IMG/VR virus record: IMGVR_UViG_3300049857_000042
Coordinates: 1 to 32,222 of that record
Strand: one strand, 5' to 3'
Origin: a virus
Lineage: Duplodnaviria; Caudoviricetes
Length of the DNA stretch: 32,222 nucleotides
Each line of letters opens with the position of its first letter. Position 1 is the stretch's first letter. Of this stretch, positions 4,716 through 32,222 are shown in pieces. Both the position numbers and the translations under genes were made by a program. The notes under the pieces are model-generated. The model was not told the DNA's origin. It made no database searches and worked only from the letters and a program-made list of their open reading frames with translations.

Positions 4716-6952
4716 GAGACTTCGTTTACGGCAAGAACCAGACAGAGCGAGTGGTAAGCGTCGAGATCGACGACTCCGTAGCCACCTTGTACCTTGATAA
4801 AGGCATAACTCAGGCCAGGAACGAGTTCTTCTGCATACACTCGGATCAAACAGAAGATGACATGATAACCTTGAACGGAGACCTTCACTACAAGTTCGTC
4901 AAGAAGTTTGACAACTCAAAGGACTTCAGGAAGCACGTTGCCATGTCGAAGGCTCGAGAAGAGGACGTGTACGCCATATACAACCCTAAGGAAGCCTTCA
5001 TGGTTAAGACTGGAGTTACCTACTACAAGGGTATGAAGCCGTCTGACCTAAGGGTGTTGTCGTTCGACATAGAGACTACAGGTCTTGATCCTAAGAGCTG
5101 TCAGGTTCTGATGATATCGACTGCTCTCAGAGACGAGAGCGGATCGCTGTCTAAGATCCTGTTCAGCATCGATGACTACAACTCTGAGAAGGAGATGATA
5201 TATGCGTTCTGTAACTACGTTGTTGCTAACAACCCTCACGTTATGGTCGGACACAACATACTCGCGTTCGACTTACCGTTCCTCAAGCAAAGAGCAGGTT
5301 CTCTACCTCTTGGAGTCGATAAACAGGCAGCTCAGTTCGCTACACGACCCAGCCTGTGCAGGAAGGATGCCAGCCAAAAATACGACTACTTCAACGTGCT
5401 CGTGCGAGGGCGCGAGATCGTTGACACCTTCCACCTTGCCATCAAGTACGACGTTGCCGGTAACTACAGAACCTATAAGCTTAAAGACATTGTAAGGCAG
5501 GAAGGTCTAGAGAGAGACGACAGGTCGTTCGTTGACGCCTCCAAGATGAAGAAGTACTTCGACGAGAGAACAAGCAACCCAGACCAGTGGCAGAAGGTAA
5601 AGGACTACGCTATACACGACGTCGAGGACGCTCTTAAGCTCTTTGAGCTCATGATACCTGCCTACTTCTACTTCTGTCAGTCGGTTCCTAAGACGCTTCA
5701 GCAGATCGTAAGCTCTGGAAGATCAACAGGCAACCAGATCAACTCGTTCCTTGTTCGCTCTTACCTATCCGACAAGCACAGCCTACCTAAAGCTTCTGAG
5801 GTTGAGCACTACGAGGGAGCAACAAGCTTCGGTAACCCTGGAGTGTACGAGTACGTAGGCAAGGTCGACGTGGCAAGTCTCTACCCATCAATAATAAGGG
5901 AGTACAAGATATATGACAAGAACAAAGATCCTAAAGGATATTTCTTACGAATGGTCGAGTTTTTTACGCTTGAACGCCTCAACAATAAAAGACTTGGTAA
6001 AGAAACAGGTGAGAGATACTACAAGGATCTCGAGCAAGCCCAGAAGATTGTTATTAACAGCGCTTATGGTTTTATGGGTGCTCCTGGTCTCAACTTCAAC
6101 TCTCCTCGATGTGCTGCTGATGTTACCCATAGGGGCCGTGACATTCTTCATAAGGGTCTTGAGTGGGCCGAGTCAAAGGGATGGAGGATCGTCAACGCAG
6201 ACACAGACTCCTTCTCGTTCATAACAGGTAACCGCTTCCCTCCTGGAGCGTTCAAGGAGTGGATCAAGGAGCTTAACACTCTCTATCCTGAGAAGATCAG
6301 ATGGGAAGACGACGGGATGTACCGATCCGTGATCGTCATCAAGACCAAGAACTACATAATGAAGGAAGCATTGACTGGTAAGGTTAAGATAATAGGAGGC
6401 GCTTTAAAGGCTACAAGCAAGGAGCGTGCGCTTCAGAAGATGATAGACGAGGTCATAGCGATGATGCTAGACGGTCGAAAGGAAGATGTTTTAGCGTTCT
6501 ACGAGAGCATGGTTAGAGAATGTTTCAAGATAACAAAGGAAAACATACAGGACTGGGTAAGCAAGAAGACTATAACCAAGAAGCTTGTTATCAGCAAACG
6601 AGCGAACGAGACTCGGGTGGTAGACGCCTACAAGAGGGCTAAGCTATCGGTTCAAGAGGGTGACAAGATATTTGTTTATTTTAGTACTGACAAAATGTTA
6701 TCAGTTATAGAGAGCTTCGACGGCGTGTACGACGTCAGGAAGCTTATAGGTAAGGTTTACAACACTATCAAGGTGTTCAAGACAGTGCTTGACATGGCTC
6801 AGTTCAAGAAGTATCATAACAAGAGAGAGTTTGAGAAGCTCTCGAAGGAGTTACAATGCGCTTCCAGTTCTTCAGATACAAGAAACAGATCGACGAGCTC
6901 GGCTACCTCTTTGCAATCCGCTTCAAGCGCTTCGGTAAGTCCGACAGCGTAA
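4700..6952 (+). CDS. polB: family B DNA polymerase with 3'-5' exonuclease
   Basis: ExoI SFDIET, ExoII GHNILAFDLPFL, ExoIII YAIHDV, region A DVASLYPSII, region B KIVINSAYG, region C ADTDS, KTKNY. Start at GTG 4700 (AGGAG at 4687) preferred over 4691. Confidence 0.95.
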   Translation: MDQSIRDFVYGKNQTERVVSVEIDDSVATLYLDKGITQARNEFFCIHSDQTEDDMITLNGDLHYKFVKKFDNSKDFRKHVAMSKAREEDVYAIYNPKEAFMVKTGVTYYKGMKPSDLRVLSFDIETTGLDPKSCQVLMISTALRDESGSLSKILFSIDDYNSEKEMIYAFCNYVVANNPHVMVGHNILAFDLPFLKQRAGSLPLGVDKQAAQFATRPSLCRKDASQKYDYFNVLVRGREIVDTFHLAIKYDVAGNYRTYKLKDIVRQEGLERDDRSFVDASKMKKYFDERTSNPDQWQKVKDYAIHDVEDALKLFELMIPAYFYFCQSVPKTLQQIVSSGRSTGNQINSFLVRSYLSDKHSLPKASEVEHYEGATSFGNPGVYEYVGKVDVASLYPSIIREYKIYDKNKDPKGYFLRMVEFFTLERLNNKRLGKETGERYYKDLEQAQKIVINSAYGFMGAPGLNFNSPRCAADVTHRGRDILHKGLEWAESKGWRIVNADTDSFSFITGNRFPPGAFKEWIKELNTLYPEKIRWEDDGMYRSVIVIKTKNYIMKEALTGKVKIIGGALKATSKERALQKMIDEVIAMMLDGRKEDVLAFYESMVRECFKITKENIQDWVSKKTITKKLVISKRANETRVVDAYKRAKLSVQEGDKIFVYFSTDKMLSVIESFDGVYDVRKLIGKVYNTIKVFKTVLDMAQFKKYHNKREFEKLSKELQCASSSSDTRNRSTSSATSLQSASSASVSPTA

Positions 6953-8743: not shown

Positions 8744-11302
8744 CTAGCTTATAAGGTTCGTGTTAGCGGTTCGTTCCTCGCTGTTTACTATCCCTTGAGA
8801 GTTGGTTATGTAACCGTACTTAAGTCTCTCGTCGACGCTGGCAGAGGTGTAGTCTGCGGCGTCGTTAGGTGTTATTACAGCGGACGTGTTGAACGTGTTG
8901 TTAAGGTCCGTGGCTTCTATAACTATCTCCTCGCCGTTCTTGGTTAGACCTATAACCAAGACAAGCTTCTTTCTGGTAGAGTCGTCTCCGAAGCGCTTGT
9001 AGAGCCTGTCAAACTCTAGCTGCAGAACGTCGCCTATTGCTACATCCTCCAACCTAAGGTCTGAGCTTATGGTAACGTCTGACCGTCCTAGACGGTTGAA
9101 GTACGTGTACCTGTGAGACATTATTGACGCGTCGTCTGAGTCGTATATGTAGCAGTTAAGCGTTGCCGTCTGGTTGGTTCCTACGTAGTCTCTCACGAAC
9201 TCTGACTCGTACGTTACCACCGAGTTGCCACCTTGCTTCGTTATCCTGTTGTAGTCCTGAAAGCGATAGTTGATGACGCTGTTCCTGAAGTTCTTGCCGT
9301 TGGTTGTCTTGATCTTCCAGTCTATGACGTCTGAGTCTCTAACTATCCTTGGCTCTGACGGAACGTCGTTCTTAAGAACCCTGTGCTGAAGGTTAAGGTC
9401 GTCGTCAAGTGTTAGGCAGCAGTACGTTGACTTGTTAAGAAGGTCTATGGCGTCCTTGGCTGAGGTTAGCTGAGACCCTTGAGACGTTGGTATCATGAGA
9501 GATATAACCTGAGACGCGGACGCCGCGCTGTCCTCGAAGGTTTGGTCGTTGAAGTTCGTTAGACCTACCTCAGAGCAGATGTCCTTAACGGCCTGAGAAG
9601 CAGTCTTGATCCACTCCCCTTCAGGCTCTCCGTCCTCGGTCTTGCCGATAACGTTAACAGACACAACCGTGCTGTCAGTTATGTAGTCAGGAAGCTTAAC
9701 CCTCGCTTCTCCTGTGTGGTTAGGATCCGCGAACGGAACCCTAAGCTCTATCTGCTGCTCGTCAACCGATAGTATCTCGTAGTACGTGGTAAAGGTTATG
9801 GCTGACGGTCTTATCCAGTCCCTAGAAGATACAAGCTCTCTTAGGTCAACGCTGTCTGTTGTTGTTAGGATCCTTGATCCGTTCGTGAATGTTAAGGCCG
9901 CTCCTAGCTCCTTAGACTTAGCAAGGGTGAACTCAACGTCCTGACTTAAGGTGACCTTAAGCTCGTTCGTTGGAGCTCCTAGGTTAGATATGGTGTAGTT
10001 CTCAGGAACGACAAGCTTACCCTCAACGTAAACGCTTTGAACCGGCTGACGAGTAACGTTAGAGCCTACGGTAGGTGCAGTTACAAGGTTCTGAACAAGC
10101 ACTATAACGTTGTTGTTTATCTGCCTGATGGCTACTCGCTCAGAGGTTTCAAACTCAACGAAGTCTCCTATGTAGAGACCTTCGGTCGTGTCAAGAAGTA
10201 TCCTGTTAAGAGAGAACACCTGAACGATCTCTCTTACCACCTTGCTGCACGCGTGATCGGTAACAAAGAACTCTCTGTTCTTGGTTGTGGTTGCTATCTC
10301 TGGAACAACAGTTACGGTCTCTGCGCTGAACGAGAACTTAGGTATCTCTGTGACCTCAAGAGTAACGTCGTCTGTTACGTGCTCTACGTTGAACTCAACG
10401 TCGTTGATGGTTATAACATCGTTAGGCGAAAGCTCGCTTAGAAACAAGGTTCCTGTTCCTGCTATAACGTTGGTGAACGTGTTGCCTGCAACGGTTCCGG
10501 TTATAGCATACCCTTGACCTATCTGGTCTATAGACTGAGCCTTAAGTCCGTCAACCTTGCCGTATACCCATCTCTTAACCTGACCGTTGACGTTATCGTT
10601 AACGGTGTCTAGGTCAGAGAACACTCCCTGAGGAAGCTTCTGGTCTAGGTCAAATATCTGATCCTTGATGGTAAAGGTGACAGTCTTTGAGTTGAACGCC
10701 TTGTTGGTAACGCGGCCTCTGTAAAGAAGCTTAGCGTCGGAGTAAGGAAGATCCCTGTTCCAGCTGTATATTGTGCACTGCTGGTTCTCGAACAAAAGCG
10801 TATCGAACACCTCGTCTAAACCGCCGTCAGTGTTCTCAAGAACCAAGTCTCCTTGTCCTACAAGAGAAGTTAAGCTCTGCTCGATACCAACCTTGTGCTT
10901 GTAGCCGGGGTTATCGTTTATTCGTCCTTGATACAGAACGTGAGCGTCACCCGTGGTAAGGCTCCACGGAGCTGCAAGGTTGCAGGATGCAAAGAAGAAC
11001 TGGTAGGTTGCTATCGTTTGAACCGTGTTAGGGTTAACAGATCCTGTGGTTCTGACGTACAGCGATGACGTTTCTATGTCGTAGAAGAAGGTACCGGGAG
11101 TCATAGATCCTACAGAAGACACCTTTGTTAAAGGAGTTTGCTCTTCCTTAAGATCAAGAACGAAGTATCTTGTAACCTTCTTGTACACGCTTCCTGTGTA
11201 GAACTGCCACTCAAGAACTCGCCCTGTAGCTTGAAGCTGGGCGAGTACTATCTTCTCTGATGCTTGAGCTGAAACGAACTCTTGTCTGTTGGTGAAGTTC
11301 AC
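8744..11302 (-). CDS. tail hub / central tail-tip protein
   Basis: 852 aa, beta-rich, downstream of tape measure and distal tail genes. LYRGRV and VYGKV segments, C-terminal IGDVLQL motif of hub proteins. Confidence 0.65.
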   Translation of the reverse strand: MNFTNRQEFVSAQASEKIVLAQLQATGRVLEWQFYTGSVYKKVTRYFVLDLKEEQTPLTKVSSVGSMTPGTFFYDIETSSLYVRTTGSVNPNTVQTIATYQFFFASCNLAAPWSLTTGDAHVLYQGRINDNPGYKHKVGIEQSLTSLVGQGDLVLENTDGGLDEVFDTLLFENQQCTIYSWNRDLPYSDAKLLYRGRVTNKAFNSKTVTFTIKDQIFDLDQKLPQGVFSDLDTVNDNVNGQVKRWVYGKVDGLKAQSIDQIGQGYAITGTVAGNTFTNVIAGTGTLFLSELSPNDVITINDVEFNVEHVTDDVTLEVTEIPKFSFSAETVTVVPEIATTTKNREFFVTDHACSKVVREIVQVFSLNRILLDTTEGLYIGDFVEFETSERVAIRQINNNVIVLVQNLVTAPTVGSNVTRQPVQSVYVEGKLVVPENYTISNLGAPTNELKVTLSQDVEFTLAKSKELGAALTFTNGSRILTTTDSVDLRELVSSRDWIRPSAITFTTYYEILSVDEQQIELRVPFADPNHTGEARVKLPDYITDSTVVSVNVIGKTEDGEPEGEWIKTASQAVKDICSEVGLTNFNDQTFEDSAASASQVISLMIPTSQGSQLTSAKDAIDLLNKSTYCCLTLDDDLNLQHRVLKNDVPSEPRIVRDSDVIDWKIKTTNGKNFRNSVINYRFQDYNRITKQGGNSVVTYESEFVRDYVGTNQTATLNCYIYDSDDASIMSHRYTYFNRLGRSDVTISSDLRLEDVAIGDVLQLEFDRLYKRFGDDSTRKKLVLVIGLTKNGEEIVIEATDLNNTFNTSAVITPNDAADYTSASVDERLKYGYITNSQGIVNSEERTANTNLIS

Positions 11303-29474: not shown

Positions 29475-29884
29475 TCGTTCTCGACCTTCTGAGACGGTAC
29501 AACCGCTAGAGGTTTGCTAAAATCTTTCTCTTTAAAAATAATTGTCTCTGGTCTCTTAGGAACGTCAACCTCAACCTCGAAGAGACCTGCAAGCTTAGCC
29601 TGCGCGTTGGTTGCCTCGAGAGCGGTCTTAAGGTTACCCTTCTCTATGGCCTTCTGGAAGATACCTTCCTGTCTTGCCATGAGGTTAGCTCGGAGCTCGC
29701 CTCGCTGCTCCTGCATCAGACCCTGCATATCCTTTAGAAGCTGATCGTACTGCTTGATGACCGTAGGCTTCGTGATCTTCTCTTCATCGGCAACTATGCG
29801 TACGATGTTGTTGCGGTTCACACCCTGAGCCATAAGCTCCTGGATGCGCTGCTCGCGTCTAATCATCTGTGCCTTGGTTGCCAT
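29471..29884 (-). CDS. terS: terminase small subunit
   Basis: N-terminal HTH-like segment, helical body, AKLAGL motif. ATGA-coupled to TerL. Confidence 0.75.
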   Translation of the reverse strand: MATKAQMIRREQRIQELMAQGVNRNNIVRIVADEEKITKPTVIKQYDQLLKDMQGLMQEQRGELRANLMARQEGIFQKAIEKGNLKTALEATNAQAKLAGLFEVEVDVPKRPETIIFKEKDFSKPLAVVPSQKVENE

Positions 29885-29901
29885 AAGATATCCTTATACC
29901 T

Positions 29902-29946
29902 ATTATAGTTAAATTCTTGACAAAAGAACCTGAGGAACAATATATT
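29902..29946. promoter_or_regulatory. divergent promoter region
   Basis: On +: TTGACA (29917-29922), 18 nt, TATATT (29941-29946) toward the endolysin. On -: TATAAT (29907-29902) toward terS, with no recognisable -35. Confidence 0.55.
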
Positions 29947-29990
29947 GCAGATGACGGCGGGATGCATAAGAAATTCTTATGGGAGGTCTG

Positions 29991-30422
29991 ATGAGAACCA
30001 TAAAAAAAATAATAGTTCACTGCAGCGACTCTGAGGACAGCCTAGACATAGGCTTCAGGGAGATCGATGAGTGGCACAGAGCTAGAGGATGGCTAAGCCC
30101 ATCAGGCATAAGCTGTGGTTATCACTTCATTATACGAAGGTTCGGCAAGATCGAGCAAGGACGACCGGTGTCAGAAACGGGCGCTCACGTCGAAGGTCAC
30201 AACTCAGACTCCATCGGCATCTGCGTGGTAGGCCGAAAGAAGTTCGACCCAGTACAGATAGACGTCTTGTATCGCAAGGTTAAGGACCTTATGGTCCAGT
30301 ACAACGTACCGGTAGACAAGGTCTTCGGTCACTGCGAGATGGACACAGGCAAGGCACAGGGTAAGACCTGCCCCAACATGGACATGAACCGGGTAAGAGC
30401 CGAGCTGCTCTTCGTAAAGTAG
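29991..30422 (+). CDS. endolysin, N-acetylmuramoyl-L-alanine amidase (T7 lysozyme-like)
   Basis: IIVHCS, GYHFII, GAHV.GHN..SIGIC..G, GH.E and KTCP zinc-amidase motifs. GGAGG RBS before ATG 29991. Confidence 0.93.
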   Translation: MRTIKKIIVHCSDSEDSLDIGFREIDEWHRARGWLSPSGISCGYHFIIRRFGKIEQGRPVSETGAHVEGHNSDSIGICVVGRKKFDPVQIDVLYRKVKDLMVQYNVPVDKVFGHCEMDTGKAQGKTCPNMDMNRVRAELLFVK

Positions 30423-30432
30423 GAAGTTAGGA

Positions 30433-30663
30433 ATGGACCTATCAAAGTTTCTTATACGTCACACCGGTGGAGAGAAGTCGCTAACCGCGACAGCGTTCCT
30501 CGTTGGCTTCCTGGTTGTTAACTTCAAGTTCATAACCGGAGGACTCTGGGGTACATCAGCGATATCAGGAGTTGACTACGGAGCGGCGCTCGCAGCCCTA
30601 GGCGGAGTTTACGCGCTAAGACGAAACGGAGCAAAGAATGAGACCACAGTCAGCAAAGGCTAA
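30433..30663 (+). CDS. putative holin
   Basis: Two hydrophobic segments and a basic C-terminus, directly after the endolysin. Confidence 0.6.
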   Translation: MDLSKFLIRHTGGEKSLTATAFLVGFLVVNFKFITGGLWGTSAISGVDYGAALAALGGVYALRRNGAKNETTVSKG

Positions 30664-31018
30664 GGGAAGAAGACTTCAGCAGGACGTGTGCAAGCTTCTA
30701 GTCGAGGCGCAGCCGTCTCTCGAGAAGGACGACGTAAGGTCAACTTCTATGGGAGCTCCTGGAGAAGACATCCTATTCAGCCCAGCAGCAAGACGGGTTT
30801 ATCCCTTCAGCGTCGAGTGCAAGAACGTTGAGAAGCTAAACATCTGGGAAGCCATAAAGCAGGCAGAGTCCCAGAACAGAGCGTACCCTCCGATGGTATG
30901 CTTCACAAAAAACGGAGAAGACATTTATGTTGCTGTTAAGATCAAAGATTTTCTGGATAGCTACAAGCGCGATCCTTCTGCTAGCACTCCTGTGGCAGGC
31001 AGCACACCCAAAGATTGA
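30638..31018 (+). CDS. PD-(D/E)XK Holliday-junction resolvase-like nuclease
   Basis: SAKAKGRRLQ, MGAPGEDI, SVECKN and W.A..QA motifs. Confidence 0.8.
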   Translation: MRPQSAKAKGRRLQQDVCKLLVEAQPSLEKDDVRSTSMGAPGEDILFSPAARRVYPFSVECKNVEKLNIWEAIKQAESQNRAYPPMVCFTKNGEDIYVAVKIKDFLDSYKRDPSASTPVAGSTPKD

Positions 31019-31331
31019 GTTTAAAGAGAAAACGGTCACCAAGATCCAAGAAAGGGTAAAGACTCTCACAAAAATTGTCGAGTCCCCAGACGGTACGAAA
31101 GTGACTATAATTGACACCGACGCAAGTCGGAACACCGAGACCACCTCAGAACGTAAGCAGAAGTCCGGTGGATCGTGGCAGATCGTTGCGACGATGACCC
31201 AGGATAAGATCTCTGACCCTACCCCTAGGTACGGTATAGGGTTCACAAGAGAACTGTTCCTAGGCTTGTCTGGAGGGGTTTACGGCACTTCTGACAAGGA
31301 GTACGGCCTGATCGTAACCTACTCGTTCTAG
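30927..31331 (+). CDS. putative spanin-like membrane protein
   Basis: N-terminal TM helix, Thr/Lys/Glu-rich linker, C-terminal amphipathic beta strands ending YSF. Lies in the lysis cassette. Confidence 0.5.
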   Translation: MLLLRSKIFWIATSAILLLALLWQAAHPKIEFKEKTVTKIQERVKTLTKIVESPDGTKVTIIDTDASRNTETTSERKQKSGGSWQIVATMTQDKISDPTPRYGIGFTRELFLGLSGGVYGTSDKEYGLIVTYSF

Positions 31332-31381
31332 GGTAGTGGCCATTTTTTGTTACGCTTAACTTGACAATAAAGGAGAAACCT

Positions 31382-31666
31382 ATGAGAAGTCTTATACTTA
31401 CAGTCTGCGTCCTAGTGGCCACGGTAGTGGCGAACGCCCAAGGCGGATCAAACCGACCAAGCATCAACCCGATCCAGTTCTTCGAGGAGCGTGTTCTGGC
31501 AGAGCCAGGATCCCCGCAGTACGTTGCCATGACCTACATCTACGTGTCATGTGTGACAGGCCTCTTGATCGCAACCAAGGACGAGGAGAAGGTCTCAGAA
31601 GACATGCTGCACTCCTGCCTAGCGTTCTCTGAGCAGTCTGTTCAGCAACCAGAGCCTGCAGAGTAA
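31382..31666 (+). CDS. hypothetical exported protein
   Basis: AAGGAG RBS, signal peptide MRSLILTVCVLVATVVANA|Q, two further Cys. Confidence 0.6.
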   Translation: MRSLILTVCVLVATVVANAQGGSNRPSINPIQFFEERVLAEPGSPQYVAMTYIYVSCVTGLLIATKDEEKVSEDMLHSCLAFSEQSVQQPEPAE

Positions 31667-32155
31667 CGTTCAAAAATTAATGAACATTAGCAGCAAAAAT
31701 GTAAATACCTGAGATCATTAGAGTATTCTGTATCATGATATGCTAATGATCCTCATGGGTTATGCTGCTACACTAACCCAACCCTTACGGGTTGTGTTCA
31801 TCTCTTCCTTCAATCGCAAGGAAGCAAAACACCATCCCCACAATAAAGCCTGTGACAAAAATTGTCATATCATGCGTTCCCATCTAACCACCTTTACCAC
31901 TGTATAACTTTAGTACGGCTATGCCGTCCATCGTCACCCTACATCGAGCTAACGCTTCCATGTTCCCATGGACGTACCCCGCTTTGCTTAAAATAGACCT
32001 CATCTCCACCACGCCTCACGGCGTCGCTACCCTATTCATACCCCAACTCTAACATGCCCTACCCTGCCCAGATCAAACGTAGAGGGTCAGAGGTTTCTAA
32101 CCTGCTGGCTGATCGCAACCGGGAACCATCCTACTCACTTTAAAAGACAACACGG
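31665..32155 (-). ncRNA. candidate large structured RNA, convergent with the lysis cassette
   Basis: ORF-free. Three GNRA-capped hairpins on the - strand (GUGA, GGAA, GUAA), many further stems, an 8-bp loop pseudoknot, and a candidate upstream promoter. Confidence 0.55.
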
Positions 32156-32160
32156 TCTCC

Positions 32161-32189
32161 GTTATACCCAATACATTTCAGCTAGTTAA
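32161..32189 (-). promoter_or_regulatory. candidate sigma70-like promoter TTAACT-N17-TATAAC
   Basis: -35 at 32189-32184 (4/6 match), -10 at 32166-32161 (5/6 match), pointing into the structured region. Confidence 0.4.
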
Positions 32190-32222
32190 GTGTCTCGTTG
32201 TAGGATCCTCTTTGTATAAGAG

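Follow-up and report, generated by a model that had tools for sequence, protein, structure and literature searches.

What does a phage specify in a gap of about 490 nucleotides that separates a cassette of small genes from the end of its contig? The question is raised by the window, our name for the whole stretch of 32,222 nucleotides analyzed here (IMG/VR virus record IMGVR_UViG_3300049857_000042, Caudoviricetes), which represents most of a siphophage genome. A preliminary description, made from the sequence, proposed that the minus strand between 32155 and 31665 encodes a stand-alone non-coding RNA with three GNRA tetraloops and a pseudoknot, preceded by a promoter and perhaps acting together with a second large RNA. 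The features on which our analysis bears are collected in Table 1.

Table 1. Features of the window and of its relatives (window positions unless a relative is named)
Feature	Position	Strand	Remarks
Exonuclease, primase-helicase, family B polymerase		+	
Tail, capsid, terminase genes		-	
Amidase, RusA-like resolvase, then three small ORFs	end at 31666	+	
101-aa ORF	31361..31666	+	convergent; function unknown; last gene of the amidase/RusA-like cassette
3' cluster	31665..31832	-	five hairpins between convergent stops; strong folding on both strands
Promoter-like site	31709..31736	+	9/12; antisense orientation
GNRA hairpin 3	31779..31794	-	6 bp; stop codon of the small ORF inside the loop
Small ORF	31785..31883	-	32 aa; one hydrophobic segment, then a charged, mostly acidic tail
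Shine-Dalgarno-like site of small ORF	31888..31895	-	predicted pairing with 31701-31689
39-codon ORF	31884..32003	-	same frame as the small ORF; its stop abuts the ATG of the small ORF
GNRA hairpin 2	31957..31972	-	6 bp; competes in the ensemble with pairing to the 5' motif
GNRA hairpin 1	32011..32024	-	5 bp; pair probability 0.96
15-nt motif	32141..32155	-	conserved in L001 and L006
Sigma-70-like promoter candidate	32161..32189	-	9/12 (4/6 + 5/6), spacer 17, last T missing; predicted start ~32154
Contig end	32222..32222		Logan contig of run X1 begins at exactly the same base
Post-capsid GC-rich hairpin	24168 region; L001 8949; L006 7813; L007 6298	- (window)	
Strong 150-nt folds in relatives	L002 3895-4120; L040 15280-15430, 15955-16180; L012 1825-1975; L041 526-750		z -3 to -6
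Sigma-54-like sites in relatives	L002 3743-3816; L015 3865, 7467; L019 1723-1814; L040 18903-18932		

Genomic setting and the probable genome end

The Logan contig of run X1 extends 5851 nt past window position 1 and brings the total to 38,073 nt, a length that falls inside the 37.3-41.9 kb span of three complete relatives. X1 may be the source sample of the window, and its contig is then a second assembly of one and the same sample. Within its first 17 kb the window has 8 differences from this contig, and it runs through the other breaks of X1. Minority variants within X1, at 6511-6646 (5 differences, in the polymerase) and 10742-10943 (11 differences, in a tail-region gene), indicate that a second strain is present. 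Recoding of TAG was ruled out, as TAG is the stop codon of 17 of the 37 genes. No integrase or repressor was found among the 42 ORFs scanned, with about 6 kb of the genome lying outside the window.

Among cultured phages, the nearest terminases have 33% identity. Terminase searches provided 11 loci from viral and 10 from metagenome sequences, with some contigs occurring more than once, and a primase search added one more, distant phage; a capsid-protein search gave no additional relatives, and none were found in GTDB genomes. The clade of the window consists of L001, L006 and L007 (capsid 78-84%), of which L001 and L006 extend into the gap and L007 does not. A homologue search with the convergent 101-aa ORF gave no match. 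Fragments from run X3, about 97% identical to the window and stopping at 31638, carry a near-identical relative of this orphan gene (31317-31638), with a C-terminus that differs after 31638.

Contigs end 67, 78 and 58 nt ahead of the 15-nt motif in the window, L001 and L006, respectively, and the contig of L018 starts in the block that directly follows the motif. L011, L015/L016, L019 and G002 show no break in the gap, as expected of circular or concatemeric DNA. In the simplest reading of these contigs, 32222 is probably the physical end of a linear genome of about 38 kb, and it would mark the probable genome end for an uncultured siphophage group of about 38-42 kb; the contig stop may alternatively be a branch of the assembly graph. 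The motif, to which L015 has a weak profile match (E 0.04), is likely a DNA-level element near the terminus. A genome terminus acting as DNA had been named in advance as one of the outcomes that would speak against an RNA; it probably applies to the upstream flank. A long-range helix of the 5' motif with 31934-31923, seemingly kept in L001 and L006, was found to be at shuffle level (fractions 0.22-0.66) and was rejected.

The promoter suspected just upstream of the region corresponds to a weak site at 32189-32161, from which an RNA would start at the motif. To this extent the suggestion holds, but the site was unlisted by a stricter scan, and the scan that found it gave no counterpart in L001 or L006. 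Promoter-like sites numbered 7, against 2.8 expected, and most of them were weak.

Folding of the minus strand

Every helix of the preliminary description was located on the minus strand where it had been placed, including the last hairpin (31688-31665), which shares nucleotides with the stop codon of the convergent 101-aa ORF. The three GNRA tetraloop hairpins on one strand are likewise present, and they are above chance. With at least 5 Watson-Crick pairs required, the region has three such hairpins on the minus strand (5-6 pairs) and none on the plus strand, while none of 3000 dinucleotide shuffles had two or more and 40 had one. The whole window has 7 on both strands, and the Poisson probability of the trio, corrected for 131 windows, is 0.0006-0.003. 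When G-U pairs and UUCG loops are admitted as well, the whole window has 16 and the chance becomes about 0.02 (calculated by hand). Perfect short hairpins number 8 in the region, more than in any of 1000 shuffles; at least 8 were also counted in 3 of 64 other 491-nt windows of the genome. There are 10 helices of 7 bp, compared to 4.0 in shuffles. A 7-nt motif is repeated in the hairpins at 32120-32107 and 31824-31804 and is also present inside the upstream coding gene, and the 7-nt loop at 32100-32094 we take to be T-loop-like. The sequence GTTAG is overrepresented on the same strand in the window (32155-31665, 5 versus 1.0 expected, about 0.001) and in L001 (1-492, 6 versus 1.2 expected, about 0.001); the excess in L006 is not significant.

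The folding energy is unevenly distributed. The z score is -2.27 for the whole region on the minus strand and -3.78 on the plus strand; the corresponding values are -4.6 and -5.2 for 31800-31665, -1.7 and -2.6 for 31900-31785, and -0.2 and +0.2 for the 5' 256 nt (32155-31900), which is shuffle level. Windows of 120 nt repeat the pattern, with excess folding confined to the 3' ~135 nt. In L001 and L006 the gap has z scores of +1.18 and -0.10, respectively, and no GNRA hairpins; no syntenic gap among the 17 loci scanned has more than one GNRA or UUCG hairpin. The relatives are AT-rich and diverged, and the loss of the fold there is thus no proof that the fold is idle here. Isolated strong 150-nt folds are seen in the gaps of other relatives (z -5.8 in L002, -6.2 in L040 and -5.0 in L012; Table 1). 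Those strong-folding windows that were scanned against Rfam gave no match, and none of the relatives' folding windows matched a model built on the 3' cluster of the window.

The comparison with Rfam that had been recommended for the region (4227 families, including GOLLD, ROOL and OLE) gave no match at gathering score anywhere in the window; the best E value within 31500-32222 was 1.7, and the loci of 10 relatives gave no match. ARAGORN found no tRNA or tmRNA genes. Group I and II introns, RNase P, SRP, HDV-like, pistol and hammerhead RNAs were rejected on the basis of Rfam and of a comparison of their cores by eye. BLASTN of the region gave no match in phages and plasmids, and its sole match in the records of four relatives was 17 nt long (E 0.14). 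A single-sequence covariance model retrieved only itself and no homologue in 27 loci. One sequence pattern scan had L001 as its sole match, another returned 15 loci, of which two were relatives and the other 13 were taken to be chance, and of the further scans one was without matches and one gave five chance matches lacking flanking likeness.

These data bear on the possibility of a lineage-specific large structured RNA, stand-alone or dual-function, in which the fold is the main function and the ORF discussed below is embedded or decaying. Such an RNA would account for a GNRA trio that is strand-specific and far above chance, and for a unit of about 490 nt delimited by the conserved motif, where transcription is predicted to start, and by a hairpin at the other end; the T-loop-like loop, the recurring 7-nt motif and the excess of 7-bp helices are in its favor as well. 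We consider it unlikely, given the absence of an Rfam match, of a fold homologue in the 27 loci and of a DNA match in phages, plasmids and the four relatives' records, the z score of the 5' half, and an ORF that is conserved where the fold is not. GOLLD and ROOL are phage-associated RNAs with sizes in a similar length class. Both are presented as large, ornate non-coding RNAs in PMC12286853. The region resembles them in length class, in its several GNRA-capped hairpins and in its phage location; it differs in having no Rfam match, a 5' half that is unstructured by energy and a conserved ORF inside.

The features could alternatively be DNA-level or incidental, namely a terminus or regulatory gap with binding motifs and a palindromic spacer that arose by local inverted duplication where two convergent stops face each other, the GNRA trio being due to chance. 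The helices of the 3' cluster are nearly all Watson-Crick, hence strand-symmetric, and are built of overlapping inverted repeats in a hairpin-rich genome. Contig ends are shared with relatives, and an A-tract block, without a match in the window, is common to L001, L006, L015 and L018. Sigma-54-like -24/-12 sites are clustered in non-coding gaps of four relatives, with none found in the window, L001 or L006; together with the A-tract-rich gaps of the relatives, they point to DNA-level use. The confinement of the GNRA loops to one strand, at the corrected probability given above, argues against this explanation, as does the conserved ORF, which requires a minus-strand transcript, and we hold it to be improbable. 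Palindromic motifs of the TCTCA/TGAGA type, similar to operator or terminase sites, are repeated in the gaps of L015 (3690-3800, 6920-7460) and L019 (1500-1730).

The partner RNA that had been envisaged would derive from a second ORF-free gap, 1956-2430, located upstream of the primase (folding z -1.8). G001 and G002 have a much shorter gap here or none. No Rfam match was obtained for 1850-2500, and BLASTN of the gap in relatives gave nothing better than E 0.1. The proposal that the two RNAs might act together gained no support: no sequence is common to both, and the longest stretch of complementarity between them is no better than in shuffles.

A small ORF within the gap

The product of the 32-codon ORF has a mean hydropathy of 2.47 over 19 residues. 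L001 has a 28-aa ORF (398-484) on the same strand and in the same place. The two align over 20 residues with a local score of 48, which was equalled by none of 5000 residue shuffles and by none of 731 other 500-nt windows in six frames (best score 44; L001 and its two duplicates were excluded from the comparison). Five of the 7 identical residues use synonymous codons, the mismatches by codon position are 10/5/12, and a Shine-Dalgarno-like site precedes the ORF in both phages. Judged by these comparisons with one relative only, the 32-aa ORF is homologous and syntenic to that of L001, with a coding-type pattern of change. Gaps of 500 nt that are deemed ORF-free can conceal conserved small genes, which calls for caution.

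The exact 32-aa protein is a called gene of the same contig in a public collection, which is evidence of a gene call only. No other homologues were found in 1.84 billion representatives or with the L001 ORF as query. The product has no match in PHROGs, Pfam, NCBIfam or PADLOC and none to a known toxin profile; the best atlas score was 0.79, for an unnamed entry. Its coding score is -0.08, on a scale where true frames have 0.51 and wrong frames -0.62. At the equivalent place L006 has a 39-aa hydrophobic ORF with an acidic tail and no significant likeness to the 32-aa ORF, and L002, L011, L015, G002 and G003 have small ORFs of the same orientation that converge on the RusA cassette. The 39-codon ORF just upstream in the window (coding score -0.01 on the same scale) is absent from the called proteins. 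It is the first in a run of tiny ORFs on the minus strand (32003-31677; 39, 32, 13, 7 and 19 codons) with abutting or overlapping stops and starts, a chain that may be chance. The 13-codon ORF closes with VAA, as an ssrA-type degron does, and the 19-codon ORF has a coding score of 0.41 and a hydrophobic product.

A minus-strand RNA with local structure is plausible because of the strand-specific GNRA trio, the strong 3' fold and the promoter-like site with its start at ~32154, and this part of the original proposal stands. Its stand-alone, non-coding status does not fare as well, since the conserved ORF lies inside, the 5' half folds at shuffle level and the relatives' gaps are unfolded; the competing partners of the pseudoknot strand (see below) and the probable genome end weaken it further. 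We lean, somewhat beyond even chances, toward a structured mRNA that encodes a small membrane protein and whose 3' hairpins end and protect the RNA at a head-on junction, beside the probable genome end. The host polymerase would initiate at ~32154 and read inward from that end, and ribosomes would produce a peptide that crosses the membrane once, its translation possibly being coupled to that of the 39-codon ORF. The hairpin cluster would end and protect the transcript where the transcript of the amidase/RusA cassette meets it head-on, and would probably serve both strands. The stretch 31701-31689 may refold over the Shine-Dalgarno site and restrict translation to nascent or 3'-trimmed RNA, a predicted effect that is not above chance.

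This mRNA fits a fold that is local to the 3' end and equally strong on the plus strand, the unfolded gaps of the relatives, the homology to L001, the like-oriented small ORFs of other relatives and the shared contig ends. It is harder to reconcile with a scan for intrinsic terminators (GC-rich stem and U run) that found no site in 29500-32222, with a promoter that is weak and not conserved, with homology to one relative, with an intermediate coding score and with a terminus that is not seen in all relatives. The two GNRA hairpins upstream of the ORF are unexplained by it. Lytic phages have small early membrane-protein genes, such as those for superinfection-exclusion proteins. The locus is similar in its short single-pass peptide, its variable small-ORF region and its reading from near the probable genome end, and dissimilar in its unusually folded transcript and in the lack of a PHROGs, Pfam, NCBIfam or PADLOC match. 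By analogy, the peptide would most likely work early in infection and at the inner membrane of the host, with superinfection exclusion as an example. An ordinary small-protein mRNA would add an uncatalogued phage membrane peptide of 28-32 aa, a result of modest value.

The 3' hairpin cluster and the Shine-Dalgarno site

The two convergent stops are separated by 118 nt of hairpins in the window versus 8 nt in L001, from which the cluster is absent; the cluster is therefore lineage-specific. The 8-nt complement between 31770-31763 and 31695-31688, which had been described as a pseudoknot, is present, but it is only one of three mutually exclusive pairings. The strand 31701-31682 can pair with the loop 31770-31763, with the arm 31751-31741 or with the Shine-Dalgarno region 31901-31889. 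At least one perfect 8-bp helix was found in 301 of 500 shuffles, and the 8-bp pairing by itself is thus unremarkable. On the plus strand it forms the outer stem of a long hairpin. Folding was performed with ViennaRNA, which cannot score pseudoknots, and the 8-bp pseudoknot is a candidate.

The predicted helix between the Shine-Dalgarno region and the 3' strand has 13 bp, 5 of them G-U, and a probability of 0.76; when the transcript ends were set in 12 different ways, the value stayed within 0.55-0.99. Pairing with the Shine-Dalgarno site is equally good for 10% of shuffled tails. The predicted energies of this helix and of the pseudoknot helix, which are mutually exclusive, are -11.7 and -11.4 kcal/mol, respectively. 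The energy for opening the ribosome site changes from 8.1 to 7.8 kcal/mol on 3' trimming of the full-length RNA, and from about 11-12 to 6-7 kcal/mol on trimming of 5'-shortened RNAs. The overall range of ~6-12 kcal/mol compares to 4.9-12.5 kcal/mol for the other genes of the phage.

This helix raises the prospect of a type I toxin-like locus, in which a membrane peptide is toxic and its mRNA is kept locked by the 3'-end/Shine-Dalgarno helix and opposed by a plus-strand antisense RNA; release would occur when the 3' strand switches to the 31770-31763 loop, as the pseudoknot, or is trimmed. The size and hydrophobicity of the peptide, the long leader and tail, the abutting upstream ORF and the near-equal energies of the two exclusive helices are all compatible with this scheme, and the promoter-like site at 31709-31736 would read antisense. 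No terminator was found for the putative antisense RNA. The frequency with which shuffled tails match the helix, an opening energy that is ordinary and barely moved by trimming the full-length RNA, and a homologue in L001 that is without the 3' tail all weigh against the lock; addiction would also be without clear use in a phage with no integrase or repressor in 42 ORFs and no GTDB relative. We regard a locus of this type as distinctly improbable.

In hok/Sok, a type I toxin mRNA makes use of a 5'-3' long-distance interaction or pseudoknot switch. The literature searched (open papers) has no description of the present locus and does contain precedents for the folding of toxin mRNAs. Long-distance interaction and 3'-end masking are known for the H. 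pylori aapA/IsoA mRNA (PMC6733600, which also names hok/Sok), a pseudoknot switch is known for the timP mRNA of the enterobacterial timP/TimR system (PMC13000454), and translation coupling to an upstream ORF is described (PMC8167048). The locus is like aapA and timP in having a hydrophobic ORF of about 30 aa inside a long folded transcript, a predicted 3' strand over the Shine-Dalgarno site and an alternative pairing of the pseudoknot type. In contrast to the type I toxin mRNAs, its helix is not above chance and is absent from the L001 homologue, its product matches no toxin profile, no temperate gene is seen in the phage, and antitoxin and toxicity are putative.

A dual-function phage RNA of about 490 nt, studded with GNRA loops and transcribed from the genome end, whose 3' strand alternates between masking of the ribosome site and the pseudoknot and so gates a new membrane peptide, is in our estimate quite unlikely. 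If it is true, a lytic phage would have recruited a switch resembling those of toxin mRNAs; the switch or the dual function would mean that a lytic phage uses a translational lock like that of type I toxins, and would introduce a new large RNA fold. Elsewhere in the clade, the capsid gene or its trailing small ORF is followed by a long hairpin, rich in GC and capped by a GNRA or UUCG loop (Table 1), which is probably a terminator.
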